Below, piece by piece: positions 3,429-39,957 of a DNA stretch of 64,000 bases. The DNA comes from Minisyncoccia bacterium (lineage in GTDB: Bacteria > Patescibacteriota > Minisyncoccia > Phycocordibacterales > UBA9973), in the NCBI GenBank assembly GCA_965656375.1, contig CBFHKH010000001.1, forward strand, positions 708,291-772,290. Direction: 5' to 3'. Within the stretch, counting starts at the first letter, position 1. The number at the start of each line of letters is the position of its first letter. A program made the translations under genes and the position numbers. Under the pieces are notes generated by a model, which was not told the DNA's origin, searched no databases, and saw only the letters and a list, made by a program, of their open reading frames with translations.

Positions 3429-5369
3429 ATGATAACTGAAGATCTTATCGACTATATACGAACAAAAAGAAAAGAAAATATAACAGATGATGAAATCACT
3501 TCACGACTCCTCCGTGCCGGATGGCATGATGCTGACATTACAGAAGGATTTCAAAGAATTACTCCCCCGGCGATTATTCCAAAAGCTTCTCCCGCCGCCG
3601 CGCTGGTACCTCCCATTGTGCCTCGTACACCAAAAGCTATTGTATTAGAACCACAAATCGAAGAAGATGATATTCCGGAAATCACTGCTACTGAACCGAC
3701 CTCTTATAAAATTCCCAAACCTGAAGTTGTAAAATCTACTGTACAAACAAGTTTTTCTCCGCAAAACTCTAAAGATGTGAAGCCCCTCTTTACTACTGAA
3801 GCGCCAAGGGTAGAACTAACTCCGACACTTATTCCAAAGGTGGCGCACCCTATACCTACTCAAAATAGTATCTCTCCAAAGAAGCCTCTTCCAGAAAGTC
3901 CTCTCATCAAAACTTTCTCAAGTGATATTCAAAAAGCAGAAGCGACCATCACCGAAGAATCAGTACCGAGCGCACGAAGGAAGATTGCTCGCAGTATCAT
4001 TATTGTTCTTGTCATTGGTCTTATTGGCGGTGCAGCATTTGCATTTCTAAAAGGATATATCTCATTTGCATCATTTATTAAAAAAGATCCAAAAGTTCTC
4101 CTCCTTGGTACCCCATCTCATCTTTCATCGCTTTCATCATATAGATCAGACACTACTATTACAGCTTCTTTCCCGTCAGTTGCAAATATCACAAATGGTC
4201 TTATTAGTGGAAATGTAGTTACATCTAAAGATACAGATTCAGTCTCGATTGATATAAAAAGTACTATACACAACAATTCTTCTAGCGCTTCCCATGCGCT
4301 TTCAGATCACGCGTTTCATATTAGAAGTTCACTGATACAAAATGATATTGATGTTGATTTGAAATATAATGGTACTACTTCTTTTATAACGATACCTGAT
4401 CTTAGTAATCTTTTTGGGGAACATGCACCGCTCTCGGGTCTTGTGGCAGTGGGGGATACTGAGTTTGATGAACTTCTGTCTCTCGTGCCAATACAATATA
4501 GAGATATGATACGAAATACTGATTTTTATAAAATGAAATCAAACGGGATTCCACCATATGTGATCAATAGCCTCAAGGTTTCCTTGAAAGAACTCATCGA
4601 TAGTGCAGATGTTTCGGAAAAACCAAAAGAAGTTATACAAGGGATAGATACATACCATTATATATTGAGTGTTGATCGAGCTGATACTAAAAAATTCCTC
4701 ATTTCTTTGGCCGATATTTTCATCACTACGCTTTCGGAGACTCAAAAGAAAAATCTTGAAGAAGCGCTCGGAGCATCGAATTTCGATACGATCGAGGTTT
4801 GGGTAGGTACGGATGATTCTTTGGTTCATCAATACAAATTCTCACTTTCGGTCCCACTCTCAAAGGTGATAAATTTAGAAGACAAAGGGATTGATGGCAA
4901 TACAGTAACATTTACATGGCAGTCGAGTGTATATGATTTCAATCAAGCTACATCAGTGCTTCCTTCGGAAACTGCGACGCCAGTATCTGACTTTGTTAAG
5001 CTTGGACTTGATAAGAATATTAAAACCACGATGGCATCCTTTATTACTGCTTCTAAGACGTTTCGAAATGCTCTCGGATCATATGGTAAAACCAATACGG
5101 GAGGAAGCTGCGTAAATCCAAGTGCGGGATCTCTCTTCTCTCCTGTCGGACATACGAAAGGTGCAGCGACTTCTGTTGGAGCTATCGCACATACTATGAA
5201 TATACTTGTCGCAAATCCAACCGGCGAAGGTTCCTGTCTCTCGACGCCGACTGCGTGGGCGATGGCGTTCCCGCTTGCAAGTGATCCGACCTCTTCGTAT
5301 TGTGTCGATAGTACTGGCTCATCTCGTATTCGTACATCTCCTCTTACGACAACGTTGTGTGATAAATAA
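3429..5369 (+). CDS. large membrane-anchored protein: short cytoplasmic N-terminal domain, Pro-rich linker, single TM helix, about 430-aa extracellular Ser/Thr-rich domain with C-terminal Cys pairs
   Basis: TM segment IARSIIIVLVIGLIGGAAFAFLKGY. The N-terminal motif …DDEITSRLLRAGWHDADITEGF… resembles a recurring small N-terminal domain of Gram-positive membrane proteins. No enzymatic motifs. Confidence 0.5.
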   Translation: MITEDLIDYIRTKRKENITDDEITSRLLRAGWHDADITEGFQRITPPAIIPKASPAAALVPPIVPRTPKAIVLEPQIEEDDIPEITATEPTSYKIPKPEVVKSTVQTSFSPQNSKDVKPLFTTEAPRVELTPTLIPKVAHPIPTQNSISPKKPLPESPLIKTFSSDIQKAEATITEESVPSARRKIARSIIIVLVIGLIGGAAFAFLKGYISFASFIKKDPKVLLLGTPSHLSSLSSYRSDTTITASFPSVANITNGLISGNVVTSKDTDSVSIDIKSTIHNNSSSASHALSDHAFHIRSSLIQNDIDVDLKYNGTTSFITIPDLSNLFGEHAPLSGLVAVGDTEFDELLSLVPIQYRDMIRNTDFYKMKSNGIPPYVINSLKVSLKELIDSADVSEKPKEVIQGIDTYHYILSVDRADTKKFLISLADIFITTLSETQKKNLEEALGASNFDTIEVWVGTDDSLVHQYKFSLSVPLSKVINLEDKGIDGNTVTFTWQSSVYDFNQATSVLPSETATPVSDFVKLGLDKNIKTTMASFITASKTFRNALGSYGKTNTGGSCVNPSAGSLFSPVGHTKGAATSVGAIAHTMNILVANPTGEGSCLSTPTAWAMAFPLASDPTSSYCVDSTGSSRIRTSPLTTTLCDK

Positions 5370-12444: not shown

Positions 12445-14160
12445 ATGAACAGTGAATCCCGTACGTGTCAGAATTGCTCCACCGAGTTCATTATCGAACC
12501 GGACGATTTCGCGTTCTATGAGAAGATGAAGGTCCCACCTCCCACATTTTGTCCAGATTGCAGGAATGTTCGTAGACTAACCTTCCGTAATGAAAGAGTC
12601 TGGTATCGCAGAACATGTGCTGCAACTAATCAGTCTATTTTATCAATGTTTGCCCCGGATGGGCCATATACTGTTTATGAAGAAAAGTACTGGAAGAGCG
12701 ATGCCTGGGATCCAATGGATTATGGCAAGCAGTATGATCCTAATAGAAGTTTCTTTGAACAACTTGATGAGTTGTTTAAAGTGGTTCCTCATCCGAACCT
12801 TATCCAGAAGAATAACGTTAATTGCGAATATTCGAATTACACTCTCAATGGTAAGAATTGTTACTATTGCGCCAGTTTCGATGAAGTTGAAGATAGCTCA
12901 TATTGTTTTACGAATAATACGCGAATAAAAAACTGCTTGGATCTGCATGTCTCAGCAGAATCTGAATATTCATACGAACTCATTGATTGCAAGAAATGCA
13001 ATCGCGTTGCATTTGCACAAAATTGTGAAGGATGCGTGAATTCGACATTTCTCTATGATTGCCGAAACTGTACAGATTGCTTTGGATGCGTAGGTTTGAG
13101 AAATAGGCAATATTCTATCTTTAATGAACAATATACAAAGGAAACATACAAAGAAGCACTCAAGCAAATCTGGGATGGGGGATATGTTGCATTTTTGCAA
13201 GCTCGCGATGCATTCAATGAGCTCAAGCTACAAATTCCACATAAGTTCTCAAACATTTTTAATTCAAATGATGTTTCCGGAGACAACATCGCTAATGTCC
13301 GCAATTGCCATTTCTGCTATGTGGCAAAGGACAATGTTGAAAATTGCAAATATTGCTATCGTGTTTGGGAAAACACAAAAGATGGGTGGGATACGTACTG
13401 TGCATGGAAAGGATCAGAGCTTTTCTATGAAGCTCACAGTATTATCGGGCAAAGAATCCTCTTTTCTCTCTATGTATGGGGAGGCCACGATATCGAATAC
13501 TCATACAACTGCTTTGACTGCAATAATATTTTTGGCTGTGTTGGTTTACGGAATAAGTCCTATTGTATTTTCAATATTCAGTACTCCAAAGAAGAATATC
13601 AAGCGTTGATCTCAAAAATAAAAAGCGATATGCTTGAGCGCAAAGAATATGGCGAATTCTTACCAAGCAGTATGTCCCCGTTTGCCTACAATGAAACAAT
13701 TGCCCAAGATTACTTCCCGTTATCTGAAACTGAAATCAAGCAAAAAGGCTACAAGTTCAGGCCAGCAGCGGAGAAGCACTATTCAGTTTCGCTTGCAACT
13801 GAAAATATTCCAGACAAAATTTCTGAAGTCGACGATTCTATACTTAATGAAGTCATTGCGTGCGAGCACGGAGGACACTGCTCCGATCTTTGTGCTACAG
13901 CATTCAAGATGACAAAAGATGAGCTTCAATTTTACAGAACTCTCAATTTACCTCTTCCACGCCTCTGTCCGAGTTGTCGCCATTTCAATCGTGTAAAATT
14001 AAAAAATCCCATGCAGCTTTGGGAACGAACATGTATGTGCGATAAAGCAAATCATTTTCATGGTGAAAATGCATGTTCAGAGAATTTCAAGACTCCGTAC
14101 GATCCAGCTCGACCGGAAATAATTTACTGCGAACAATGCTATCAAGCAGAAATCTTGTAA
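12445..14160 (+). CDS. Cys-rich multi-zinc-ribbon protein, paralog 1 of 3 (571 aa); no signal peptide
   Basis: N-terminal module CQNC…FIIEPDDFAFYEKMKVPPPTFCPDCR…RN…Y.R.C. Two internal CxxCxxCFGCVGLRN(K/R).Y modules. C-terminal module C…FKMT.DELQFYR.LNLPLPR.CPSCRH…YCEQCYQAEIL. Clearly homologous to 14419..16122 and 21318..23057. Confidence 0.6.
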   Translation: MNSESRTCQNCSTEFIIEPDDFAFYEKMKVPPPTFCPDCRNVRRLTFRNERVWYRRTCAATNQSILSMFAPDGPYTVYEEKYWKSDAWDPMDYGKQYDPNRSFFEQLDELFKVVPHPNLIQKNNVNCEYSNYTLNGKNCYYCASFDEVEDSSYCFTNNTRIKNCLDLHVSAESEYSYELIDCKKCNRVAFAQNCEGCVNSTFLYDCRNCTDCFGCVGLRNRQYSIFNEQYTKETYKEALKQIWDGGYVAFLQARDAFNELKLQIPHKFSNIFNSNDVSGDNIANVRNCHFCYVAKDNVENCKYCYRVWENTKDGWDTYCAWKGSELFYEAHSIIGQRILFSLYVWGGHDIEYSYNCFDCNNIFGCVGLRNKSYCIFNIQYSKEEYQALISKIKSDMLERKEYGEFLPSSMSPFAYNETIAQDYFPLSETEIKQKGYKFRPAAEKHYSVSLATENIPDKISEVDDSILNEVIACEHGGHCSDLCATAFKMTKDELQFYRTLNLPLPRLCPSCRHFNRVKLKNPMQLWERTCMCDKANHFHGENACSENFKTPYDPARPEIIYCEQCYQAEIL

Positions 14161-14161
14161 C

Positions 14162-14413
14162 ATGGAAAACTTAGAAACAAGAATTAAAGTAATCGAGGAG
14201 CGCAATAGAAGAGTCGAACTCGATAAAAAGTGGGAAACTAGTTTTACCCGACTCTTTTCGATAAGCCTCATTACTTACATTGTTGCTGTGATTGTTTTTT
14301 ATATGATGAATACGCAAAAACCATTTCTCAATGCACTTGTGCCAGTTCTTGGTTTTATCCTTTCTACCCAATCGCTTCCTGTTATTAAAAAACTATGGAT
14401 ACGAAATAAGTAA
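14162..14413 (+). CDS. small 2-TM membrane protein (83 aa) between Cys-rich paralogs 1 and 2
   Basis: Starts 1 nt after the upstream stop and ends 5 nt before the next start. Charged helical N-terminus followed by two hydrophobic helices. Confidence 0.45.
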   Translation: MENLETRIKVIEERNRRVELDKKWETSFTRLFSISLITYIVAVIVFYMMNTQKPFLNALVPVLGFILSTQSLPVIKKLWIRNK

Positions 14414-14418
14414 TTTGT

Positions 14419-16122
14419 ATGGAAACTCGTAACTGTATAAACTGTAAACAAAACTTTACCATTGAACCAGATGATTTTTCATTCTACGAAAAAATGAAGG
14501 TGCCCGCACCGACTTTTTGCCCGGAATGTCGAATGATCCGAAGAATGTGCTGGCGTAATCACAGATCATTTTATCGACGTGCATGTGCGATTTGTTCAAA
14601 ATCTCTCTTGTCAGTATATAAGGAAGATAATGCTCCTGTAATGTGTGTAGAATGTTGGAATTCTGATGATTGGGATAATTTTAAGCTTGGGAAAGACATA
14701 GATTGGAATCGCCCACTATTCTCACAAATAAATGAACTATTTGAATTTCAGCCAAGAGTTTTCCAATATCGAGCTGGGGGTATTGTCATAAATTCTGATT
14801 ATGCAAATTCTGTCGTAAATTCAAAGAATATCTATCTTTCTTTTTCAGTTTTAGAATCGGAAGATATCTTATTTTCTGAAAATGTAGATGGGGGTAAAAA
14901 TTCTATGGATTGTCTGTATGATTCAAAAATAGATACATGCTATTGGAATATAGATTCTTCAGAGAATTATAATTGTAAGTTTATGCTTGAAACAAGTAAA
15001 AATATAGATTCTTCTTTTCTCTATGATTGTGCTAATTGCCAGAATTGTTGTCTGAGTTCTAATTTAAGAAATAAATCCTTCGTGTTTAGGAACAAACAAT
15101 TACGTAAAGAAGAATATAATAAAGAGTTAGAAAAATTGTCACTCAGTACTTTCTCAGGTATAGAAAATGCAAAAAAAGAATTTAAAGAAGTTAGGAAAGA
15201 AGCTATCAGTAAGTATTCATCAATAATCAACTGTGTGAATGCTTCGGGTGAGCATATTTATAATTCCAAAGATGTGAAATCTTCTTTCCATGTTTTTGGT
15301 TCAGAGAATGTATCTGATAGTTTTAGAATAGTTTCTTCGAAAGACATGAAGGACTGTTGTTGGGTTCTGACAGGAGAATTGGAATACGAAACAATATCTG
15401 GAACAAATAACTCTAGTGCGCAAATAGGGTGCGCTGTTTGTTTTAATTCATCGCAAATGGAGTATTCTATTTTTTGTAGAGCATGTTCAAACTGTTTTGG
15501 ATGTGTTGGTTTGAAAAATGCGCAATACTGTATATTGAATAAACAGTATACGAAAGAAGAGTATGCAGATTTAGTTCCGAGACTGAGACAACATATGATT
15601 GATATACCATTCATTGATTCAAAGAATCGTGTATATAGATATGGAGAATTTTATCCATATGAAATGTCTCCATTTGGATATAATGAAACGCTAGCTCATG
15701 ATTATTTTCCAAAAACAAAAGAAATAATAGAACAGGAAGGATTCAATTGGAAATCAGCAGAATTAAAGGGGTATCAAATTACCATACAGAGTAAAGATTT
15801 GCCGGAGGATATTAAAGAAGTTAGTGAAAGTATACTAAACGAAGTTATAGGATGCCCGAACAATGGTAACTACATGCTTCAATGCACTACTGCTTTTAAA
15901 ATTTCACAAGAAGAATTTGTTTTTTATAAAAAAAATGAACTTCCATTACCACGGTACTGTCCAAATTGCCGCCATTATGAACGCTTAAGGGAGAGAAACC
16001 CTATGAAACTCTATATAAGAGAGTGTTCGAACGGCTGCGGGCGTAATTTTTCGACGACATACGCTCCAGATCGACCTGAGAAGGTCTATTGTGAGCAGTG
16101 TTACCAGGCAGAAGTACTCTAA
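14419..16122 (+). CDS. Cys-rich multi-zinc-ribbon protein, paralog 2 of 3 (567 aa)
   Basis: Same N- and C-terminal modules (CINCKQNFTIEPDDFSFYEKMKVPAPTFCPECR…; …FYKKNELPLPRYCPNCRHYERL…YCEQCYQAEVL). Conserved YGEFYPYEMSPFGYNETLAHDYFP segment. Confidence 0.6.
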   Translation: METRNCINCKQNFTIEPDDFSFYEKMKVPAPTFCPECRMIRRMCWRNHRSFYRRACAICSKSLLSVYKEDNAPVMCVECWNSDDWDNFKLGKDIDWNRPLFSQINELFEFQPRVFQYRAGGIVINSDYANSVVNSKNIYLSFSVLESEDILFSENVDGGKNSMDCLYDSKIDTCYWNIDSSENYNCKFMLETSKNIDSSFLYDCANCQNCCLSSNLRNKSFVFRNKQLRKEEYNKELEKLSLSTFSGIENAKKEFKEVRKEAISKYSSIINCVNASGEHIYNSKDVKSSFHVFGSENVSDSFRIVSSKDMKDCCWVLTGELEYETISGTNNSSAQIGCAVCFNSSQMEYSIFCRACSNCFGCVGLKNAQYCILNKQYTKEEYADLVPRLRQHMIDIPFIDSKNRVYRYGEFYPYEMSPFGYNETLAHDYFPKTKEIIEQEGFNWKSAELKGYQITIQSKDLPEDIKEVSESILNEVIGCPNNGNYMLQCTTAFKISQEEFVFYKKNELPLPRYCPNCRHYERLRERNPMKLYIRECSNGCGRNFSTTYAPDRPEKVYCEQCYQAEVL

Positions 16123-20142: not shown

Positions 20143-20721
20143 ATGAAATCAAAACAAGCAAAATTCATACTTATAATAGCCGCAGTCATTATTGTTGTTA
20201 TAGGTCTTGGCTTCCTTACTAATAAAGCACAAGGTCCGGGTACATACGATGAATTCGCAAAAGCACTTAAAGCAGGTGGCGCAGAATTTTATGGAGCTTT
20301 TTGGTGTCCACATTGCCAAGCACAAAAAGAAGAGTTTGGTACTTCTAAGAAATACCTTCCCTATATAGAGTGTTCAAATCCGAACCAGTCAATGACCCAG
20401 GTCTGTAAAGATAAAAAGATCGAAAGCTATCCAACATGGATGTTTAGAGATGGCATTACTCTCAAATCAACTGTTCCACCTACCGTCTGTGATATCAAGC
20501 CAGGTAAAGCAGGTGAAGATGCAGTTTGTGCAAATGCTTCTTCACAGTATTACAAGACATGGGTTTTCCCTGGGTATAAATTCTCTATCAAGAGTCCATC
20601 TGATCCGATCGTTGAGAATGGGGTTTGGAAATTCCCACAAGGCTCAGAAACAACCGGAGAACTACCACTACAATTCCTTGCAGAGCAAATCGGCTTCACT
20701 CTACCAGCTGATACAGAATAA
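20143..20721 (+). CDS. DsbA/BdbD-like thioredoxin-fold thiol-disulfide oxidoreductase with N-terminal membrane anchor
   Basis: CxxC in FWCPHCQAQKEEF. N-terminal TM (FILIIAAVIIVVIGLGFL). The start was taken at the in-frame ATG at 20143, since the track ORF 20074.. would overlap the nrdB 3' end. Confidence 0.6.
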   Translation: MKSKQAKFILIIAAVIIVVIGLGFLTNKAQGPGTYDEFAKALKAGGAEFYGAFWCPHCQAQKEEFGTSKKYLPYIECSNPNQSMTQVCKDKKIESYPTWMFRDGITLKSTVPPTVCDIKPGKAGEDAVCANASSQYYKTWVFPGYKFSIKSPSDPIVENGVWKFPQGSETTGELPLQFLAEQIGFTLPADTE

Positions 20722-20722
20722 T

Positions 20723-21271
20723 ATGCCAGCATATGTAGAAACAGTAAATACGTTACTCGCTCTCGGCACAATTGGAATGCAGATACTTATTGTACTGATC
20801 TTTGCCTCTCTTCTCTTTATGCGATCTCGCAATAATGCCATACTTATATTTTTCAATAAGTATGGCTTTTATTGTGGTTTTACGATTGCACTCTCATCAG
20901 TATTGATCTCTCTCTTTTATTCTGAAGTTGTCGGATTTGCTGCATGTGAGCTTTGTTGGGTTCAGAGGTACTTTATCTATCCACAAGTATTGATATTTGG
21001 TTTGCTTATCTGGTGGAAAGAAAAGAAACAGCTTATAAACTTGAGCGGTCTCATCGCGTTCTTGGGAATGTTCGTCTCAATCTATCATGTCTATATAGAA
21101 AATGGGGGCAGTTCAAGTCTCGCATGTTCAAACTACGTCGAGGGAAGCGTCACCTGCGCTGCTCGCTATATATTTGAATTTGGCTATGTCACTATCCCCG
21201 TCATGGCGCTGACAGCCCAAGTGTTTATTCTCGTTCTTATTTTGAACCACAAATACATGGCTCGAACATAA
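20723..21271 (+). CDS. disulfide bond formation protein B, BdbC-type
   Basis: CELCWVQR matches the BdbC/DsbB first-loop motif (B. subtilis BdbC has CELCWYQR). A second Cys pair C…C lies in the second loop. 4 TM helices. The start was taken at the in-frame ATG (MPAYVETVN…) abutting the upstream stop. Confidence 0.75.
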   Translation: MPAYVETVNTLLALGTIGMQILIVLIFASLLFMRSRNNAILIFFNKYGFYCGFTIALSSVLISLFYSEVVGFAACELCWVQRYFIYPQVLIFGLLIWWKEKKQLINLSGLIAFLGMFVSIYHVYIENGGSSSLACSNYVEGSVTCAARYIFEFGYVTIPVMALTAQVFILVLILNHKYMART

Positions 21272-21317
21272 TCTACGTATCTATACATAGATTCTCGTTT
21301 GTGCCACAATTATATAT

Positions 21318-23057
21318 ATGCAAGCAGAATCTCGAATCTGTCAGAACTGTAAACAAAATTTCACTATCGAATCCGAGGATTTTTCATTCTACGAGAAAAT
21401 CAAAGTCCCTCCGCCGACGTTTTGTCCGGGGTGTTCACACCAGCGTCGCTTTGCGTGGAGAAATACGCATGCACTTTACCACAGGCCAGATAGTGTAACA
21501 GGGAAGGATCTAATTTCTATCTATCATCCTGATGTGAAGATGAATGTTGTTGATCAGAAATATTGGTGGAGTGATGAATGGGATGCCTTTGAGTTTGGAG
21601 AGGGTATAGATTTCTCGAAACCGTTCCTTGTTCAATGGAAAGAGTTACGGGACAGAATACCATTTCAGGCGCTTTCAAATTCAAAGGCAGTAAACAGTGA
21701 TTACTGCAATGTCGCAGAAGAAAGTCATGATTCGTACCTGTGCTCAGCATCCTGGAAGATAGAACGGACACTGTATTCTGATTCGATTTTTGAGACCAAG
21801 GATTGTATTGATGTATGTGTTGTTCATAAAAGTGAGCTGTGTTACGAAGATGTATATTGTACCGATTCGTACAAATTATTTTACAGCGAGAAGTCAAATA
21901 GTTGCACTGATTCTTTCTTTTTATACGATTGCAAGGGTTGCGTAGATTGTTTTATGTGCTCAAATCTTCGCAATAAAAGTTATTGTTTTCAAAATATCCA
22001 ATATTCGAGAGAAGAATATCATACAAAGGTGGCCGAGTATGATCTCGGAAGTTTTTCTACTATAGAGAAACTAAAAAAACAATTTAAGGACTTAAAACAA
22101 ACGGCAGTGCATAAATATGCAAATATCATAAACAGTCACAACACAACTGGTGATAATGTCGACCATGCTGATAATTGTAAATCTTGTTTTGATATAAGTG
22201 GCGGTGTTAAAGACAGCGCACATACATTTTGGGGAGCAAAGGGATTAAACGAGTGTTACTACTGTGGTCCTGGCATTGGATGGGGCGATACCCTCTATGA
22301 ATCTTTTGATGGCGGTGCGGGAGGAGGAAAATTTGTTGCGACTTCTGTCGTTTATTATTCAACCGAAGTTGAATATTCATTTAATTGCTACAGCTGTAAA
22401 AATTGTTTTGGCTGTATAGGTCTCCGTAATAAATCGTATTGTATTCTTAATAGACAATACACCAAAGACGAATATTTCGAATTACTTTCTAAAGTAAAAG
22501 AACATATGGTTTCTATGCCGTATGTAGATAAGAAAGGAAGGATATATTCCTATGGAGAGTTTTTCCCGATAGAACTTTCTCCGTTTGCGTATAATGAAAC
22601 TATTGCGAATGATTTCTATCCGTTATCGAAAGAAGAAATAATTGAAAAAGGGTATTCCTACAGGGAAAAGGAAGACAAAAAATATACACCGACGCTAGAA
22701 ACTAATCAAATTATGGATAACATAAAAGATGTTACGGATGATATTTTGAATGATATTATTGTCTGTGACTCTTTACCTATTTCAGACCTCTGTCCTAAAG
22801 TATTCAAAATCACCCAAGCTGAACTCGCATTCTATCGAAAGTTCAACATACCTATTCCCAGAAAGTGCTACCAATGTCGACACAAAGAACGTTTTCTTAA
22901 ACGCCCACCGCTAAAACTCTGGCACCGGTCATGCATGTGTGAAAAATCAAATCATGCCCATGAAGGCAACTGTCCGAATGAATTCGAGACGAGTTATGCA
23001 CCTGAGCGGCCAGAGATGATTTATTGCGAGAAATGTTATCAACAAGAAGTTATTTAA
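21318..23057 (+). CDS. Cys-rich multi-zinc-ribbon protein, paralog 3 of 3 (579 aa)
   Basis: CQNCKQNFTIESEDFSFYEKIKVPPPTFCPGC… N-module. NCFGCIGLRNKSYC internal module. SYGEFFPIELSPFAYNETIANDFYP. C-module …FYRKFNIPIPRKCYQCRH…YCEKCYQQEVI. Confidence 0.6.
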   Translation: MQAESRICQNCKQNFTIESEDFSFYEKIKVPPPTFCPGCSHQRRFAWRNTHALYHRPDSVTGKDLISIYHPDVKMNVVDQKYWWSDEWDAFEFGEGIDFSKPFLVQWKELRDRIPFQALSNSKAVNSDYCNVAEESHDSYLCSASWKIERTLYSDSIFETKDCIDVCVVHKSELCYEDVYCTDSYKLFYSEKSNSCTDSFFLYDCKGCVDCFMCSNLRNKSYCFQNIQYSREEYHTKVAEYDLGSFSTIEKLKKQFKDLKQTAVHKYANIINSHNTTGDNVDHADNCKSCFDISGGVKDSAHTFWGAKGLNECYYCGPGIGWGDTLYESFDGGAGGGKFVATSVVYYSTEVEYSFNCYSCKNCFGCIGLRNKSYCILNRQYTKDEYFELLSKVKEHMVSMPYVDKKGRIYSYGEFFPIELSPFAYNETIANDFYPLSKEEIIEKGYSYREKEDKKYTPTLETNQIMDNIKDVTDDILNDIIVCDSLPISDLCPKVFKITQAELAFYRKFNIPIPRKCYQCRHKERFLKRPPLKLWHRSCMCEKSNHAHEGNCPNEFETSYAPERPEMIYCEKCYQQEVI

Positions 23058-23079
23058 TTAATAATTATTATTTTTATAT

Positions 23080-23493
23080 ATGCTTGTAGAAAAGATCAAC
23101 AAAGGGGATAGTAGCGCAGTGTTTGTATACACCACATGTAGAGACAGGGAAGAAGCTCGCTTAATTGGGCTCGAATGCATCAGAAATAGACTTGCGGTTT
23201 GTTCAGACTTCTGGGAGATAAACTCTGTGTACCCATGGAATGGAGTCATAGAAGAAGTTTCCCAATATATGCTTATGCTTACTACTGAAAAGCGCCTCAG
23301 CCCGGAACTTATTTCATTTATTGGCACGATCCATTCATATACAACGCCCATGATATCAGAGCTTGATGTCGCTCTCATGAATTCAAGTTACAAATTTTGG
23401 GCAGATACTACACTCGATAGCAGAGAAGATTATGTTTTAGAAGAGGATATCAGTAGAGAAGAGAGCAACACCAACATTGAAAAGCTCAAATAG
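23080..23493 (+). CDS. cutA: divalent-cation tolerance protein CutA
   Basis: VYTTC.D.EEA..I…L.ERLAAC…I.S.Y.W.G.IEE pattern along 137 aa is typical of CutA1. Confidence 0.65.
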   Translation: MLVEKINKGDSSAVFVYTTCRDREEARLIGLECIRNRLAVCSDFWEINSVYPWNGVIEEVSQYMLMLTTEKRLSPELISFIGTIHSYTTPMISELDVALMNSSYKFWADTTLDSREDYVLEEDISREESNTNIEKLK

Positions 23494-23543
23494 CTCACCC
23501 GGTATAGTTTTATAAAGATTTGATATGATATACTGTACCCAGT

Positions 23544-25292
23544 ATGCATGTTGATGAAAAGACAATCATAGACCTCCTCAATAGTTCAGATCTTGTCTCA
23601 AAGACTGACGTCGCGATGGCGCAGAAAAAAGCAAAAGAGACCAATCAATCAATTGGTGCTGTTCTTATGAGTGATGGTAAATTGACTGAGAAAGACTGGA
23701 ATAGTATGCAGGCGGTATCGCTCGGTATTCCGTTTATTAGTCTCAAGGGTGAACACATCGATCCTGAAGTACTCATGCTCATTCCAGAACCGATTGCTCG
23801 CAATAACAACATTATCGCTTATAAAAAGACTAAACTTGGCCTCGAAGTGGCTATGCTCGATGTCGATAACCTTTCAGTTATCGACTTTATAAAGAAAAAG
23901 GTAGGCCTCAAAATCCTTCCTCGAATGACAAGTTCGGATTCTATAAAAGAAGCACTCACTCAGTACAAAAAAAGTCTCCAAGCTGACTTTGAAGATATCA
24001 TCAAAAAAGAATCAGCATCGATCAAGCCCGTATCCGAAGACGGTGAAGAAAAATCCGAAAAGGAACTTAAAGAACTTGCCGAAGATCTACCAATCGTAAA
24101 AATTGTCGATACACTTATCTCTCACGCAATTCTCCAAGGTGCGTCTGATGTTCATATTGAACCAGGAGAAGCCTCACTTATCGTTCGTTATCGTATCGAC
24201 GGAATTCTTCATGATGCCATGGTCCTTCCGCGTGATACCGCATCGGGGATCGTTGCACGCATCAAAGTGCTCTCGAGCCTTAAGCTCGACGAGAAGCGCT
24301 TGCCCCAAGACGGACGATTCAAGATCGTTAACGATCAGGGGAGTGTTTCGTTTCGTGTTTCAACTCTTCCGACATACTTTGGTGAAAAGACCGTTATTCG
24401 TATCTTGCGGGAGAATACAAAAGGATTTTCTCTCGAAGGTCTTGGATTTCACGGTGAAGCGCTTGAACGTATTCACGATGGTATGAAGCAGCGAACGGGA
24501 ATGCTTCTCTGTGCTGGACCAACTGGTTCGGGTAAGACAACGACGCTTTACACTGTGCTCGATATTTTAAATACTCCAGATGTGAATATTTCCACAGTTG
24601 AAGATCCGATCGAATATCAGATGGCCCGTATCAATCAAACGCAGACAAAAGCCGAGATTGGACTAACATTTGCAAACGGTCTTCGTACGCTACTTCGTCA
24701 GGACCCGGATATTATCATGGTGGGAGAGATCCGCGATGGAGAGACAGCATCGCTTGCCGTCAATGCCGCACTTACTGGTCACCTTGTGCTCTCTACAATC
24801 CATACAAACTCGGCGGTGGGAGCTATTCCACGTATGATCGATATGGGAGTTGAATCGTTCCTCATCGTCTCAACGGTGAAGACTGTGATCGCGCAGCGTC
24901 TTGTTCGTAAGCTTGCTGATGGAAAACAGAAATATTTCTTGAGCCCTGCGGAACGAGAAGCACTTGAGAAAATAGTCAGTCTTGATCGTGTCCTTGGGTT
25001 TCTGAAGAAGGAAAAGATCGTCGGGGATGATGCCACCTGGGATACTATTCCGTTCTATAAGCCAGCGCCAAGCGAAGAATCCGAGAGTGGATTCAAAGGT
25101 CGTGTCGGTATTCATGAAGTCATGAAAGTTACAACCACAATCAAGGAGATGATCTTAAAAGGTGCTCCCGATGTAGAGATTGAGAATAAAGCAAAGGAAG
25201 AGGGCATGATGACGATGCTCGAAGATGGCATATTCCTCGCTGCTCAAGGGCTAACATCTACAGAAGAAGTCCTCCGTGTTGTGTCTGAGTAA
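23544..25292 (+). CDS. pilB: type IV pilus assembly ATPase PilB (GspE family)
   Basis: Walker A GPTGSGKTTTLY. GspE N-terminal domain. Asp box and His box present. 582 aa. Confidence 0.85.
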   Translation: MHVDEKTIIDLLNSSDLVSKTDVAMAQKKAKETNQSIGAVLMSDGKLTEKDWNSMQAVSLGIPFISLKGEHIDPEVLMLIPEPIARNNNIIAYKKTKLGLEVAMLDVDNLSVIDFIKKKVGLKILPRMTSSDSIKEALTQYKKSLQADFEDIIKKESASIKPVSEDGEEKSEKELKELAEDLPIVKIVDTLISHAILQGASDVHIEPGEASLIVRYRIDGILHDAMVLPRDTASGIVARIKVLSSLKLDEKRLPQDGRFKIVNDQGSVSFRVSTLPTYFGEKTVIRILRENTKGFSLEGLGFHGEALERIHDGMKQRTGMLLCAGPTGSGKTTTLYTVLDILNTPDVNISTVEDPIEYQMARINQTQTKAEIGLTFANGLRTLLRQDPDIIMVGEIRDGETASLAVNAALTGHLVLSTIHTNSAVGAIPRMIDMGVESFLIVSTVKTVIAQRLVRKLADGKQKYFLSPAEREALEKIVSLDRVLGFLKKEKIVGDDATWDTIPFYKPAPSEESESGFKGRVGIHEVMKVTTTIKEMILKGAPDVEIENKAKEEGMMTMLEDGIFLAAQGLTSTEEVLRVVSE

Positions 25293-25303
25293 TACATACA
25301 AAT

Positions 25304-26518
25304 ATGAATTTTAAATACAAGATCCAAACCAAAGATAAACAGATCATCGAAGGCTACAAGGATGCACCCGATAAGTTCACTCTTGCTCGTGAATTGCGCG
25401 AACAAGGGAGTACTCCGCTTCTTATAGAAGAATCAAAAGGAAAAGGAGAAAAATCAATATTGAAGATGGATCTTTTTGGACATGTTTCTCTTTCCGACAA
25501 AATGATATTCACAAATAATCTCTCTGGAATGCTTTTAGCGGGGCTGTCTCTGACTCGAGCACTTACCATACTTGAGAAACAATCAAAGAATGTCACATTC
25601 AATAAAATCCTTACTTCGCTTGTTGAAGATGTAAACAAGGGTAACACGCTTTCCGATGGCATGAAAAAATTTCCTAAAGTTTTCTCTGGTATCTTTGTAT
25701 CGATGGTTCACTCTGGTGAGGAATCGGGCGGTTTACCCGCGGCACTTTCTGAAGTCGGGCTCAATCTCAAAAAGTCATATGACTTGAGAAAAAAAGTCAA
25801 AGGGGCGCTCATGTATCCATCAATCATCTTGATCGCGATCTTCATTATTGGAGTACTTATGATGATGTTCGTTGTTCCTACGCTTACTAAGACATTCAAA
25901 GATCTCGGAGGGGATCTGCCTGGTTCGACAAAGTTTGTCATCTGGCTTTCGGATACCATCAGTGAGCACACGCTTTTATTCTTGCTTGCTGTCGCGGTGA
26001 TCGTCACGATTTTTGTTCTTTTTGCCAAGCTTAAGTCAACGAAAAAATACTTTGATTTTATCGTTTTGCGGTTACCGGTGATCGGCACTATCGCCAAAGA
26101 GGTGAATACTGCTCGTACTGCTCGTACGCTCTCATCACTTCTTACATCGGGGGTAGATATGTCTCGAGCGCTCTCTATCACTCAAGAAGTTTTGCAGAAC
26201 ACATACTACAAAGACCTGATAGCTCGGTCAATTGTAAATATAGAAAAAGGTGAACCGCTCTCGACAAGCTTCAAAGAAGGAACAAAACTCTATCCAGTTA
26301 TGATGGGGGAAATGATCGAAGTGGGTGAAGAAACTGGTAATCTGTCCAAAATGCTTATAGATATCGCAAATTTCTATGAGGCAGAGGTAGATAACAAGAC
26401 AAAAGATCTCTCCACAATCATCGAACCGGTTCTCATGGTGTTCATTGGAGGTGCCGTCGGATTCTTTGCTGTTTCTATGATCTCTCCTATGTATTCAGTT
26501 ATGAGTAATATAAAATAA
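25304..26518 (+). CDS. pilC: type IV pilus inner-membrane platform protein PilC (GspF family)
   Basis: Two T2SS-F repeats, 3 TM helices, 404 aa, directly downstream of pilB. Confidence 0.8.
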   Translation: MNFKYKIQTKDKQIIEGYKDAPDKFTLARELREQGSTPLLIEESKGKGEKSILKMDLFGHVSLSDKMIFTNNLSGMLLAGLSLTRALTILEKQSKNVTFNKILTSLVEDVNKGNTLSDGMKKFPKVFSGIFVSMVHSGEESGGLPAALSEVGLNLKKSYDLRKKVKGALMYPSIILIAIFIIGVLMMMFVVPTLTKTFKDLGGDLPGSTKFVIWLSDTISEHTLLFLLAVAVIVTIFVLFAKLKSTKKYFDFIVLRLPVIGTIAKEVNTARTARTLSSLLTSGVDMSRALSITQEVLQNTYYKDLIARSIVNIEKGEPLSTSFKEGTKLYPVMMGEMIEVGEETGNLSKMLIDIANFYEAEVDNKTKDLSTIIEPVLMVFIGGAVGFFAVSMISPMYSVMSNIK

Positions 26519-26522
26519 GAAT

Positions 26523-27002
26523 ATGCATCACATCACAAACAAAGGAATCACTATGCTTGAGATACTTGTTGTCATCAGTCTTCTGGTACTTCTCTCGGTA
26601 GTAACTGTCCCAAGTCTTGTTCGATTTCGAAGCGAACAACTTTTAAACAATACAGCTTCAGATATCGTTTCAATGATAAACAGAGCGCGTAGTGATACGG
26701 TTTCATCACTCAACTCTACGAGTTACGGCGTTCACTTTGACTCGAATCAAGTTGTCTACTATGTTGGCTCTGTATATGATCCGGATATTGTTCCACTAGC
26801 GAACAACAAGATCACATTCGATTCCAGTATTATTATGGCAAGTGACGGGATTAATTTAAATGGGGGCGGAAGTAACGTAACTTTTACCCGTCTTACGGGA
26901 GAGACAACAAACTATGGTACAATTACCATTAGGCTTTCATCTGATGCCGCTCGGCAAAAGGTTATTACTATCAGTAAAGCAGGTTCTGCAAGTTCAAACT
27001 AA
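26523..27002 (+). CDS. prepilin-type N-terminal cleavage/methylation domain protein (pseudopilin, GspH/FimT-like)
   Basis: Class III signal …NKG|ITMLEILVVISLLVLL with Glu at +5. 159 aa. Confidence 0.65.
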   Translation: MHHITNKGITMLEILVVISLLVLLSVVTVPSLVRFRSEQLLNNTASDIVSMINRARSDTVSSLNSTSYGVHFDSNQVVYYVGSVYDPDIVPLANNKITFDSSIIMASDGINLNGGGSNVTFTRLTGETTNYGTITIRLSSDAARQKVITISKAGSASSN

Positions 27003-27515
27003 ATGAACACTACCCATAGGAAAAATGGATACAAAAATTATTCGAAAGGTTTTAGCCTCATTGAGGTTCTCATTGCATGTGGAATAATATCAGTCTGTAT
27101 CTTTGCACTGATGACTACAGCAACGAAGGGAATTCAACTTTCAAATCAAGCACTCCGTCAGACACAAGCAAGCCTTCTTTTAGAAGAAGGGGGTGAAGCC
27201 GTTAAATCAATTCGCGATACGAACTGGACTACAATTTCGAGTCTTACCGTTGGTACCACATACTACTTGAGTTACAGTACAAGTACTAATACCTGGTCAC
27301 TTGGTACGAGTGTCCAAAGTCCAATAGATTCTCTCTTTACAAGAACAGTTGTATTTACAGCAGTAAATCGCGATTCAAACGATGATATTGTGACTTCAGG
27401 TGGTACGCTCGATGCTCGAACAAAAAAAGTTACGGTGACTGTCTCTTGGCCATCGTATGATGCATCGACTACTTCGCGGACGCTGACTTTTTATATCAGT
27501 GATATTTTTAATTAG
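27003..27515 (+). CDS. prepilin-type pilin/pseudopilin
   Basis: Canonical …SKG|FSLIEVLIACGII N-terminal methylation motif. Confidence 0.7.
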   Translation: MNTTHRKNGYKNYSKGFSLIEVLIACGIISVCIFALMTTATKGIQLSNQALRQTQASLLLEEGGEAVKSIRDTNWTTISSLTVGTTYYLSYSTSTNTWSLGTSVQSPIDSLFTRTVVFTAVNRDSNDDIVTSGGTLDARTKKVTVTVSWPSYDASTTSRTLTFYISDIFN

Positions 27516-28035
27516 TATGAAGATCCAAAAGAAAAGTGGATACAGTATTGTAGAGATGATAGTATATCTGGCGATTTTTGCATTTATGTCTCTTGTTGTG
27601 ATCAATTCATTTATGGTGATCCTCAGATCTTTCAATCATGCTCGAATAAATCGCGATCTTCTTGAATCAGGAGCAACAGCTATGGAGAGAATTTCTCGAG
27701 AACTTCGCAAATCAAAAGTTGTAAATGTCGCAAACAGTTCTTTTGGATCAAACCCTGGTATCCTACAACTCGACAATCTCAATGTTACCGGAACTCCAGA
27801 TTCCATCATACGGTTCACTGTTACAAATGGTGATCTTAACATCACAGAGAATGGAACAGTGATCGGTAATTTGCTTGGGGAGAATGTGAGCGTTACGAAC
27901 CTTATCTTCAGGCGCATTACTACGCCACACGGTGATGCAGTGAAGATCGAGCTTACGATACAGATTGTCTCAGGTGGTATCATTCGAAGCGAGAATTTTT
28001 ATGACACGATATTATCGCGCGGAACTATAAATTAA
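27499..28035 (+). CDS. prepilin-type minor pilin
   Basis: …KSG|YSIVEMIVYLAIF class III signal-like N-terminus. Overlaps the upstream gene by 17 nt. Confidence 0.6.
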   Translation: MIFLISMKIQKKSGYSIVEMIVYLAIFAFMSLVVINSFMVILRSFNHARINRDLLESGATAMERISRELRKSKVVNVANSSFGSNPGILQLDNLNVTGTPDSIIRFTVTNGDLNITENGTVIGNLLGENVSVTNLIFRRITTPHGDAVKIELTIQIVSGGIIRSENFYDTILSRGTIN

Positions 28036-31725: not shown

Positions 31726-33378
31726 ATGCCAAAACCTGCTGAACTCTTGGAATTGTTATTGAAAAATAGAGGAATCGCTCTTGAAAATCAAGAGCGATTC
31801 TTGAATCCTCTCTACGAACACCTGTATGACCCATATCTACTCAAGGATATGGAAAAATCTGTCGTACGGATTTTCGAAGCCACTGAAGGTAATGAGAAGA
31901 TTGTAATCTATAGTGACTACGACTGCGACGGTATTCCTGCTGCGGTTATTATGCATGATTTTTTTACGAAGATTGGATACGATAATTTCTCTATCTATAT
32001 CCCTGATCGTCATGACGAAGGGTATGGTTTGCACGCCGATGCAATAGATCAATTTATCAAAGACGGTGTAAAGCTTTTGATAACGTTTGACCTCGGTATT
32101 ACTGCAATACATGAAGTCGCTCAAGCACAGAGTGCGGGTATTGATGTTATCATTACTGATCACCACGTACCGCATGAAGAAACCCCTCGGGCGTATGCAA
32201 TTATTAATCCAAAACAAGAAGGATGCGACTATCCAGATAAAATGCTCTGTGGTGCAGGGATCGCGTTTAAGCTTGTGCAAGCACTTATTAGTAAATATGG
32301 AGAGTATTGGAAAATACCGAACGGTTGGGAGAAATGGCTGCTTGATATGGCAGGTCTTGCAACGCTTGCTGATCAGGTTCCACTTACGGGAGAGAATCGC
32401 GTGCTTGCGTACTATGGGCTCAAGGTTTTGCAAAAAGCTCGCAGACCGGGACTGGCTGAACTTTTTCGTAAAGCAGGCGTAGATGTAACCAAACTGTGCG
32501 AAGAAGATGTGACATTTACTCTGGCACCGAGGCTCAACGCTGCATCACGCATGGCGAGCCCGATGCGAGCATTCGAAGTACTGGCGACGACTGATAGTGT
32601 AGAAGCGAAAACTCTGGCAGATCATCTTTCGAAGATCAACGATGAACGTAAATCGATCGTAGCGCACATCATGAAAGATGTGAAAAAGACTCTTGGGAAG
32701 AGAGAAGAGAAACCGGTTATCGTCATTGGTAATCCAAATTGGCGGGTAGGAATACTTGGACTTGTCGCTTCAAAAATTGCCGAAGAATACAAGAAACCTG
32801 TATTCGTATGGGGATCCGAGGGAAGCGATACTATTCGTGGTTCATGCAGAGCATGGGGGAGTAGTAATCTCGTAGAAGTAATGGCGAAGCTTCCGGAGAA
32901 TAGTCTGCTTGATTTTGGTGGACATGTTTCAGCCGGAGGATTCTCCGTGTCGCACGAGGAGATTCATTTCTTAGAAGAGCGACTGCTTACTGTATTTGAC
33001 GGGATCACAGATACGAAGGAGAATAGTAACGTAGATAATATAGACGCGATTATTTCTATGGATGATGTGACGACAGAAAACTATGTTGTTATAGAAAAAC
33101 TTGCGCCATATGGTACAGGGAATCCAAAGCCTGTGTTTATGTTCAAGGATGTACCCATAACAGAGGCAAAAGAATTCGGCAAAGAAAAGAATCATTTAGA
33201 ATTGATATTTTTAAATACAAAAAGTCGCCCAGTCAAAGCGATTGCATTCTTTAAAACTCGTGAGAGTTTCAATCGATCAATCTCTGCCGGTGAACGCATA
33301 AATCTCACTGCTACATTTGAGAAAAGCACCTTCGCCGGCCGCACAGAGCTCAGATTGCGGATTGTTGATATACTATAA
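31726..33378 (+). CDS. recJ: single-stranded-DNA-specific exonuclease RecJ (DHH family)
   Basis: DHH motifs (DYDCDGIPA, ITDHH), DHHA1 region, 550 aa. Confidence 0.8.
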   Translation: MPKPAELLELLLKNRGIALENQERFLNPLYEHLYDPYLLKDMEKSVVRIFEATEGNEKIVIYSDYDCDGIPAAVIMHDFFTKIGYDNFSIYIPDRHDEGYGLHADAIDQFIKDGVKLLITFDLGITAIHEVAQAQSAGIDVIITDHHVPHEETPRAYAIINPKQEGCDYPDKMLCGAGIAFKLVQALISKYGEYWKIPNGWEKWLLDMAGLATLADQVPLTGENRVLAYYGLKVLQKARRPGLAELFRKAGVDVTKLCEEDVTFTLAPRLNAASRMASPMRAFEVLATTDSVEAKTLADHLSKINDERKSIVAHIMKDVKKTLGKREEKPVIVIGNPNWRVGILGLVASKIAEEYKKPVFVWGSEGSDTIRGSCRAWGSSNLVEVMAKLPENSLLDFGGHVSAGGFSVSHEEIHFLEERLLTVFDGITDTKENSNVDNIDAIISMDDVTTENYVVIEKLAPYGTGNPKPVFMFKDVPITEAKEFGKEKNHLELIFLNTKSRPVKAIAFFKTRESFNRSISAGERINLTATFEKSTFAGRTELRLRIVDIL

Positions 33379-33381
33379 AAT

Positions 33382-33849
33382 ATGCGAAACACTATCGAAA
33401 TATATACAGACGGGTCGTCGCTCGGGAATCCTGGTCCAGGGGGCTGGGGAGTTGTGATTGTAAATGGAGAAAAAATTATTCACGAGATTGGTGGGTACGA
33501 GAAAGAGACGACAAATAATCGCATGGAACTCATGGCTGTCATCGAATCACTCAAATATATTCTAAAAGTGTATGCAAATGATACTGTGATAATTCATGCT
33601 GATTCAACATACACCCTCGGCGGGGTGACTACATGGATACACAACTGGGAGAAGAATGGTTGGCGAACTGCAAATAAAAAAGAAGTTTTAAATCAAGATC
33701 TCTGGAAGGAACTCATTACTCTCGTCCGAGAGTTTAAAGGGAATCTCACATGGAACAAAGTAAAAGGTCACTCTGACCATATCTATAATGATCGCGCAGA
33801 TAAAATTGCTACACAATGCTCTTCGCTTCAAGATAGCTATGCTTTATAA
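33382..33849 (+). CDS. rnhA: ribonuclease HI
   Basis: IYTDGSSLGNPGPGGWG N-terminus. Conserved D/E/D catalytic residues. 155 aa. Confidence 0.85.
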   Translation: MRNTIEIYTDGSSLGNPGPGGWGVVIVNGEKIIHEIGGYEKETTNNRMELMAVIESLKYILKVYANDTVIIHADSTYTLGGVTTWIHNWEKNGWRTANKKEVLNQDLWKELITLVREFKGNLTWNKVKGHSDHIYNDRADKIATQCSSLQDSYAL

Positions 33850-33967
33850 AGCACGAATAATTTTCTGGTGAAAATTTTCTCTGCTCGTCGCTCAAGAAAA
33901 TAATAGCAGGAATACCTGCTTTATTTTCTAAACTCCTGCGCAAGGCTTTCTAAAGCATAGCTATCTT
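33831..33967 (+). repeat. copy 2 of the structured intergenic element; outer 22-23-bp stem includes the rnhA stop codon
   Basis: 5' arm aagatagctatgctttataaagc pairs with 3' arm gctttctaaagcatagctatctt (1 mismatch). Core CTCTGCTCGTCGCTCAAGAAAATAATAGCAGGAATACCTGCTTTATTTTCTAAACTCCTGCGCAAGG. Confidence 0.7.
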
Positions 33968-34023
33968 TCGCTCGAAAAACTTTTAATTTTTATATTTATT
34001 TTATTTCTCTCTTTTATACTAGA

Positions 34024-35331
34024 GTGGTGATTTCAAAGAAAGAAATCTGTATACTCGGTATCTTTCTCGTGATTGCGCTTGTGCGCTTTTTCTTTTTTAT
34101 GCCAGAGGCACCAGCGTATGATGATGCAATAGGGGAGAATGTACTCGTTGAAGGTGAAGTAGTAGAACCACCTGATATACGAGTATACAATCAACGTTTG
34201 ACTGTGAAGCCTCGCAACCAGGACACCATTATTCTCGCTGTTGCATCTAAAGACACTGACGTGTCATATGGCGATATCGTTCATGTAGGAGGGATTCTCG
34301 AAGTACCAGAAAACTTTATGACATCGTCAGGAAAAGAGTTTAACTACAAAAGATATCTTGCGAACCAAAATATCTATTTTATTATTAACAAGGCAACTAT
34401 AGAAGTTATTAGAGAAGCTAACGGCAGGAAAATAAAGTCACTTCTCTTTAGATTCAGGAATGCGTATATAAAAAACATTCGGGAAGTTATTCCACCGCCT
34501 GCGAGTGACCTTTCGAATGGTCTCATCTTGGGTGTTCGTGGTGGATTTGATACAACAGTGCGCGATGAATTCATCTCCACTGGCACGATCCATATCATTG
34601 CACTCTCTGGGTACAATGTGACTATCGTTGCTGAAAGTGTGATGAAAATACTCGGGCTCATTTTTGCGCACGTAGTAGGTATCATACTCGGCATGATGGT
34701 CATTGTGCTTTTTGTAGTTCTTTCAGGTGGGTCTGCGACTGCAGTGCGGGCGGGGATCATGGCTGTGATTATACTCCTTGCTCGACTGACAGGCCGCACA
34801 TATGATGCAGGTCGGGCGCTTGTCATTGCAGCACTTTTGATGATTACATATGATCCGCGGGTAATAACTGATATTTCTTTTCAGTTTTCATTTATTGCAA
34901 CTTTTGGTGTATTGTTTCTAACCCCAAAAGTTATAGAGTGGGTGAGATTTATTCCAATCAAATTTGGTTTTCGAGAAGTAGTAGCGACGACACTTGCTGC
35001 CACAATCACAGTTTTGCCGATACTTCTCTATACGACAGGAATTCTTTCTATTGTGTCACTTCCGGCAAATATCTTAATCCTTCCGCTCATACCACTTACT
35101 ATGTTTTTTAGTTTTCTTACCGGAATAGCAGGATTTATATCGCCTGTACTTGCACTCCCATTTGCATATGTTGCTGATTTCCTCCTTTCATACATTCTCT
35201 CTGTTATTCATTTCTTTGCTTCACTCCCATTTGCAAGTGTAACCATACAATCATTCCCACTCATAATAACTCTCATACTTTACGTACTTATTCTCTGGTG
35301 GGTATTTAAGAAACAAAAAGCCATCGGCTAG
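34024..35331 (+). CDS. comEC: ComEC/Rec2-family DNA-uptake channel protein, N-terminal part (OB/DUF4131 plus the competence membrane domain); lacks the metallo-beta-lactamase domain
   Basis: Competence-domain core (…LSNGLILGVRGGFDTTVRDEFISTGTIHIIALSGYNVTIV…). About 9 TM helices. 435 aa. Ends at a shared bidirectional terminator. Confidence 0.7.
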   Translation: MVISKKEICILGIFLVIALVRFFFFMPEAPAYDDAIGENVLVEGEVVEPPDIRVYNQRLTVKPRNQDTIILAVASKDTDVSYGDIVHVGGILEVPENFMTSSGKEFNYKRYLANQNIYFIINKATIEVIREANGRKIKSLLFRFRNAYIKNIREVIPPPASDLSNGLILGVRGGFDTTVRDEFISTGTIHIIALSGYNVTIVAESVMKILGLIFAHVVGIILGMMVIVLFVVLSGGSATAVRAGIMAVIILLARLTGRTYDAGRALVIAALLMITYDPRVITDISFQFSFIATFGVLFLTPKVIEWVRFIPIKFGFREVVATTLAATITVLPILLYTTGILSIVSLPANILILPLIPLTMFFSFLTGIAGFISPVLALPFAYVADFLLSYILSVIHFFASLPFASVTIQSFPLIITLILYVLILWWVFKKQKAIG

Positions 35332-39945: not shown

Positions 39946-39957
39946 TTTTTATAGCGT

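Follow-up and report, generated by a model that had tools for sequence, protein, structure and literature searches.

What is the cysteine-rich protein encoded at positions 12445 to 14160 of a 64,000-nucleotide stretch of Minisyncoccia DNA (contig CBFHKH010000001.1, positions 708,291 to 772,290; hereafter the window), and why would its host keep several diverged copies of it? Patescibacteria, the lineage concerned, account for much of bacterial diversity and are mostly uncultured, with genomes of about 0.8 Mb; in cells this small, three to nine or more old paralogues of a 570-residue protein per genome represent a considerable investment. The window holds three copies, A (the protein at the positions above), B and C, of a family for which we found no Pfam, NCBIfam or PDB relative. 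Comparison of sequences, profiles and models predicts that A is an internally duplicated beta-solenoid protein capped by zinc fingers, and the neighbourhoods of its relatives link the family to VirD4-like coupling-protein ATPases. An earlier reading made from the letters of this DNA (the sequence-only reading) had seen zinc ribbons at the two ends of A, homologous to each other, with two CxxCxxCFGCVGLRN cores between them. The observation was confirmed, all the strings it quoted being found in A, whereas the interpretation drawn from it held for the duplication and not for a pseudo-dimer or for iron-sulphur (Fe-S) ligation.

The module order of the family protein is Z-M-M-L-Z: a zinc module (Z) at either end, two homologous solenoid units (M1 and M2) and a linker domain (L). 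The AlphaFold2 (AF2) model of A is confident, with a predicted local distance difference test score (pLDDT) of 89.6 and a predicted template modelling score (pTM) of 0.88. The gene and its inner modules lie as follows.

12445..14160, + strand: A, one open reading frame (ORF) filling the interval exactly, 571 residues
12778..13179, + strand: M1 unit, residues 112-245, a beta-solenoid of about eight 12-residue rungs, then the helix QYTKETY
13057..13113, + strand: last rung of M1, DCRNCTDCFGCVGLRNRQY, residues 205-223, the first core of the sequence-only reading
13228..13629, + strand: M2 unit, residues 262-395, homologue of M1
13507..13563, + strand: last rung of M2, NCFDCNNIFGCVGLRNKSY, residues 355-373, the second core, with Ile for the third Cys
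13630..13854, + strand: linker domain, residues 396-470, unique, with the near-invariant motif YGEFFP..SPFAYNETIAQDYFP

Cys accounts for 37 residues of A (6.5%). A scan of the protein found no transmembrane-like or signal-like segment, and because of this, and because the first zinc knuckle already begins at residue 8, A is taken to be cytoplasmic. Among 185 full-length relatives, conservation peaks in the Z modules, the last rungs and the acidic linker (median net charge -6) and falls to its minimum in the solenoid bodies, above all in M2, whose solenoid is more variable, less regular (pLDDT 67-87) and the least conserved part of the protein.

Single-sequence and profile tests agree that the N- and C-terminal modules are homologous to each other, and M1 and M2 likewise. 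In a Smith-Waterman self-comparison, with significance taken from 2000 composition-preserving shuffles, the N-terminal against the C-terminal module scored z=17.8 and M1 against M2 z=20.7, no shuffle reaching as high for either, as opposed to z ~1.2 for the control pairs (N-terminal module against M1, C-terminal module against M2); residues 11-58 and 483-530 align without a gap at 17 identities in 48. Profile-based repeat detection, proposed along with the sequence-only reading, also gave significant self-similarity. With sub-blocks cut from a 61-sequence family alignment, residues 9-85 matched 481-568 (98.9% probability, E 1.8e-17, 77 columns) and residues 112-242 matched 262-392 (99.9% probability, E 1.9e-32, 129 columns), while no similarity appeared between terminal and middle modules. 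The repeats are larger than first described: the terminal ones, put at about 50-60 residues, extend over some 80-100 and ancestrally held two four-Cys sites each, and the repeated Cys motif with its helix proved to belong to a duplicated domain of about 130 residues. The second core is also imperfect, reading C356-F-D-C359-N-N-I362-F-G-C365. From these repeats it had been suggested that the protein arose as a pseudo-dimer, through a single tandem duplication of a Z+M half-unit. The homologies themselves stand, but the module order Z-M-M-L-Z speaks against such an origin, which we consider highly unlikely; the linker (residues 396-470) has no counterpart in the first half of A.

The terminal Cys behave as structural metal ligands, with zinc as the predicted metal. 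Across the 185 relatives the sets C8/C11/C36/C39, C483/C508/C511 with C473 or C479, and C530/C544/C562/C565 are 90-99% conserved; the first is CCCC in 180 of them, and C508 is His in a further 6%. At a second N-terminal four-Cys site (58/61/79/82), CCCC is found in 82 of the 185 and in B, and A reads C-T-E-Y; we infer three structural zinc sites in A and four in B. In the AF2 model C8/C11 flank strands 4-7 and 14-17 and C36/C39 begin helix 37-45, a zf_Tbcl-type arrangement. Residues 6-44 of A match zf_Tbcl (PF13451) at 21.6 bits (E 2.2e-4, profile positions 5-44 of 48) and the family consensus does so at 19.4 bits, where the gathering threshold is 24 bits; 29 of 61 relatives match at E<0.1 (best E 2.6e-4). 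Residues 543-568 match zf_Tbcl_2 (PF23477) at 16.4 bits (E 0.007, gathering threshold 27 bits), the motif CxxC...PxxxRPxYCxxC being present. In Foldseek comparisons, phage 'putative zinc-ribbon domain' proteins (BFVD) superposed at a root-mean-square deviation of 0.5 Å over 40-42 aligned columns, with 30-33% identity. The Z modules appear to be divergent treble-clef fingers, in which a zf_Tbcl-like half comes first and a zf_Tbcl_2-like one second. These modules are basic (median pI 8.2 and 8.6), and the whole family protein is acidic (median pI 6.2).

What, then, are the Cys strings of the middle modules? The DSSP string of the AF2 model has a strand every 12 residues there, and the autocorrelation of the M1 profile has maxima at lags 3, 6, 9, 12, 15, 18 and 24. 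In the consensus rungs of M1 (dCekCYnlfFSq / nCedCvDSyFLy / DCrNCsNCFGCV), positions 2, 5, 8 and 11 are small or hydrophobic (Cys, Ser, Leu or Gly), and read in this register CxxCxxCxxC appears to be the final rung of M1, with Cys at all four positions. The homologous final rung of M2 has the consensus nChnSSNLFGCV, that is C-S-L-C, and upstream rung Cys swap freely with Ser among relatives. The sequence-only reading had set the cores apart from the ferredoxin pattern CxxCxxCxxxCP, correctly given their CxxCxxCxxC spacing, while noting that they superficially recall Fe-S ligation. If they bound [4Fe-4S] or other Fe-S clusters, making the protein a redox protein or a sensor, the four M1 Cys at i, i+3, i+6 and i+9, each 88-96% conserved, would fit, as would a cytoplasmic location and the anaerobic life of most source organisms. 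However, the M2 rung does not carry the full set (C-C-I-C in A), the M1 Cys give way to L, V or S in 4-12% of the 185 relatives, and the same 2/5/8/11 sites carry Cys, Ser or Leu in all upstream rungs, which argues that they are core positions. No ferredoxin CxxCxxCxxxCP or radical-SAM CxxxCxxC pattern was found, and no Fe-S Pfam family matched. An obligate cluster is hard to reconcile with this replacement pattern, leaving Fe-S binding a very slim chance; the solenoid Cys fit buried core positions, although CxxC pairs of neighbouring rungs may build a zinc site. A would thus illustrate how an apparently 'Fe-S-like' Cys string can result when a very tight beta-solenoid repeats its core positions.

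How widespread is such a protein? Searches with A, B and C returned nothing significant from Pfam, NCBIfam or PADLOC, and the family profile had no match among PDB sequences at E<=10. The family nonetheless appears very large and, as far as our literature search shows, not previously described: a word-indexed search yielded at least 7154 clusters at 90% identity, all 'hypothetical', with a Pfam domain on one of 120 among the matches listed (PF09606 on P0119), and an exhaustive profile search yielded 5054 clusters at 50% identity with E<=1e-3, 2227 of them at <=1e-30. Apart from one 2-kb contig, every named source belongs to the Patescibacteria, of the Paceibacteria/Parcubacteria type (Nomura-, Lipton-, Staskawicz-, Jorgensen-, Giovannoni-, Kaiser-, Sungii- and Niyogibacteria). 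This contig (L032, CAYZAZ010000094.1, 2185 bp), binned as 'uncultured Gammaproteobacteria', probably reflects a binning error rather than a genuine occurrence beyond Patescibacteria. Relatives were absent from phage and plasmid collections (tblastn) and from a scan of IMG/VR, and the family does not appear to be mobile.

Genomic context was read from 82 sequences, namely 81 loci of at most ±10 kb around a match and the 64-kb window. Two or more copies are present in 54 of the 82, in arrays of up to nine, nearly always on the same strand. Copies at the same locus are only distantly alike (median identity 41%, highest 61%), and 96% of members are more similar to a relative from some other genome, which marks the copies as old, retained subfamilies rather than a recent amplification. 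Module hidden Markov models matched none of the non-family ORFs of the 82 sequences, which gave no sign of the modules in any other architecture within this set.

The commonest recurrent neighbour is a P-loop ATPase that scores above the Pfam gathering values for T4SS-DNA_transf (VirD4/TraG), TrwB_AAD_bind and TraG-D_C, and so resembles type IV coupling proteins (T4CPs). It is found in 30 of the 81 loci, immediately beside a family gene in 21. A 2025 survey counted 5,713 VirD4-like T4CPs in 2,918 Patescibacteria genomes, 148 of them near virB4; this amounts to 1.96, or about two, per genome, mostly far from a type IV secretion system (T4SS), and its authors suggested a possible exaptation (PMC12102498). 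At that density chance would place a T4CP in some 3-4% of loci (p ~1e-20, shared ancestry ignored). The reverse test agrees: of 80 metagenome loci retrieved through one form of the ATPase, Ts, 66 hold a family gene, and where at least 2 kb of upstream sequence was available, a family gene ends less than 500 bp upstream of Ts, in the same orientation, in 36 of 60.

Ts, about 490 residues long with the ending ...EAEPMI/EPLI, shows 64-90% identity from genome to genome. A second form, Tz, has 580-800 residues and carries a CxxC-x18-CxxC finger (consensus CSxCkKEtTVPFKPEPGRPVYCKeCI); this finger and the latter half of the Z modules align in register, a match that is only suggestive (hhalign E 1e-3 to 1e-4, probability 18-55%). 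The majority of the associated ATPases have no transmembrane segment. A 459-residue membrane protein without a Pfam match, c7, is homologous (E 6e-10) to the N-terminal half of fused ATPase forms of 790-921 residues (c7 and fused examples: L056 3128-4507; L069 13059-15824; L034 1388-3760), and in some loci the coupling protein is thus divided between an anchor gene and an ATPase gene. The Ts-retrieved loci have the co-oriented layout dnaK > Tz > F(0-4) > Ts > dnaJ > (F) > c12, F being the family gene (e.g. L098, L116 and L156 of L083-L162), with dnaJ directly 3' of Ts in 57 of 59 cases. Two coupling-protein homologues are inserted here within an Hsp70 operon; c12 is an unannotated 195-residue protein. 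Other lineages show the arrangement SecD-SecF-c4-c7-(c19)-Tz-F(n)-Ts. Since the link between ATPase and family is kept across the two flank contexts (dnaK...dnaJ and SecDF-c4-c7), it outlasts a change of flanks; the dnaK/dnaJ embedding may be a matter of lineage synteny.

What could the family do beside these ATPases? From the neighbourhood we propose that its members are clients or adaptors of VirD4-like ATPases, in which the conserved basic Z modules would serve as docking handles and the variable solenoid as the source of specificity. Taken further, the family and its two bracketing VirD4-derived ATPases might form an unrecognised, T4SS-independent Paceibacteria machine wired into the Hsp70 (dnaK-dnaJ) operon. 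In such a machine the coupling ATPase would have become, by exaptation, a motor that handles proteins, with the zinc-capped solenoid paralogues as its interchangeable adaptors or clients. We offer this tentatively and regard it as doubtful. If true, it would explain what the 'orphan' T4CP genes, roughly two in each Patescibacteria genome (PMC12102498), are for, and the tight reciprocal linkage in any case points to a specific candidate family, as partner or cargo, for VirD4-like coupling proteins, which makes the question of exaptation testable.

Several points weigh against this proposal. No T4CP-like ATPase, dnaK or dnaJ lies near A, B or C within the window, and the ATPase link for that reason characterises the family, not the window locus. 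The loci are phylogenetically related, so binomial p-values overstate their independence, and the ATPase-adjacent copies, when examined as a possible special orthologous subfamily, did not form one. Stably folded zinc domains would be awkward as secretion cargo, and the zf_Tbcl and zf_Tbcl_2 scores both lie under the Pfam gathering thresholds.

Alternatively, the family proteins could be effectors sent into host cells by a Patescibacteria T4SS with the VirD4-like ATPases as its coupling proteins, as in the Bartonella Bep arrays beside virD4. Arrays of diverged paralogues do adjoin T4CP homologues, variation is concentrated in the middle of the protein between conserved termini, and T4SSs without conjugation functions are widespread in Patescibacteria, with no known cargo (PMC12102498). 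Yet most of the associated ATPases, besides having no transmembrane segment, are not near virB4 (PMC12102498), the paralogues are old retained subfamilies and not fast-evolving lineage-specific expansions, and three or four structural zinc sites would need unfolding for export, which makes this explanation unlikely. It is distinctly unlikely, too, that the proteins bind nucleic acids through basic treble-clef fingers at both ends, loading or guiding an FtsK/HerA-type DNA translocase for DNA uptake, segregation or repair: net charges are modest in a protein that is acidic overall, the loci contain no helix-turn-helix or nuclease partner and no relaxase, and the dnaK-dnaJ embedding points to proteins rather than DNA. 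The chance that the family belongs to an anti-phage defence or other mobile conflict system, as diversified tandem paralogues beside a HerA-like ATPase and weak matches of the ATPases to the PADLOC mad8/HerA models might suggest, is next to negligible, given that A, B and C have no PADLOC match, the ATPase similarity to HerA/mad8 is only generic, phage, plasmid and IMG/VR collections hold no relatives, core housekeeping genes surround the family in conserved synteny, and the short ATPase is too uniform across genomes to resemble defence islands.

In the window itself, A and B sit between genes for an MFS transporter and a class I ribonucleotide reductase, and C has a DsbB-like gene on one side and a type IV pilus operon on the other (region 20450-28035). 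GC3 below is the GC content at third codon positions.

14419..16122, + strand: B, 567 residues, 39% identical to A, second N-terminal four-Cys site kept, GC3 0.27
21318..23057, + strand: C, 579 residues, 40% identical to A, upstream of the type IV pilus operon
14162-14413, + strand: 83-residue ORF starting 2 nt past the stop of A and ending 5 nt ahead of the start of B, with hydrophobic transmembrane-like stretches and only weak DUF1427/YlaC matches
20450-21271: DsbB-like gene
23544-25292: PilB-like ATPase
25304-26518: PilC-like T2SSF protein
27003-28035: prepilin-type N_methyl proteins
3429-5369, + strand: 646-residue ORF, no Pfam family at E<=1e-5 or E<=1e-3
31726-35331: RecJ, RNase H and a ComEC-type competence protein, clustered, consistent with the DNA-uptake lifestyle reported for Patescibacteria
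38038-41985: two large proteins, probably surface-located, one of 635 residues with YadA-head repeats and the kind of intramolecular-chaperone domain known from phage tail fibres (Peptidase_S74), and one of 675 residues with a CarboxypepD_reg domain

The 83-residue ORF was considered as a partner of the family and rejected, having no counterpart in the 81 other loci. Over region 14162-16122 GC3 is low, 0.27 in B and 0.32 in this ORF, against 0.39 in A and about 0.42 in the MFS transporter, ribonucleotide reductase and PilB genes, which suggests a separate origin of B and the ORF, perhaps by transfer from a lower-GC relative.

How does the family compare with what is known? Its apparent parts are of already known kinds: the treble-clef finger, the beta-solenoid, and the coupling-protein ATPase that has paralogues as neighbours. 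We found no description in the literature of the family, of the Z-M-M-L-Z architecture or of bracketing by two orphan T4CP-like ATPases in a chaperone operon; searches on the family, its fingers and dnaK/VirD4 in Patescibacteria gave the T4SS survey (PMC12102498) as the only relevant paper.

Akin to the DnaJ zinc finger (CxxCxGxG x4), A has a string, C212-F-G-C215-V-G, that fits CxxCxG, in a family often encoded between dnaK and dnaJ; but each M unit has only a single such string, its Cys sit on a solenoid rung rather than in a hairpin finger, and there is no match to Pfam DnaJ_CXXCXGXG. A DnaJ-type finger was rejected on these grounds, and the resemblance is probably a coincidence. With the left-handed beta-helix (LbH) acyltransferases (LpxA/LpxD/GlmU) and gamma-carbonic anhydrase the middle modules share a regular stack of short parallel strands with a small residue at every third position, and beta-helix proteins were the sole weak fold matches of A (best Foldseek E 2.7e-3, TM-score 0.07-0.12). 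The period is 3/12, however, not 6/18 (18 residues per coil), and acyltransferase catalytic residues are lacking; an LbH acyltransferase role was rejected in view of the absent Hexapep match and a TM-score of ~0.1. A possible parallel in period is the insect antifreeze protein TmAFP, which has 12 residues per coil (TCTxSxxCxxAx) and is secreted and disulfide-bonded, whereas the family protein is cytoplasmic. The 12-residue repeat of the middle modules, with core positions 2/5/8/11, would fit the TmAFP pattern in sequence.

The Z modules resemble zf_Tbcl and zf_Tbcl_2, themselves probable treble-clef fingers with no known function, in having two CxxC pairs about 24 residues apart, the second at a helix start, and the C-terminal end of A, 'RPEIIYCEQCY', matches zf_Tbcl_2 at E 0.007. 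Unlike in those families, both finger types are here fused in one module of about 85 residues, duplicated at both ends of a 570-residue protein. As opposed to the Bartonella VirD4-Bep arrays and Legionella DotL with its adaptors, two ATPases bracket the family array, mostly without a membrane anchor (a separate c7 in some loci); they are not near virB4 (PMC12102498) and lie between dnaK and dnaJ, and the family apparently has no BID-like or known secretion signal. A coupling-protein neighbour is found for the family at large (30/81 and 66/80 loci) and not for A, B and C in the window. What the family does share with these systems is an array of modular paralogues beside VirD4-family ATPases, conserved in the terminal modules and variable in the middle.
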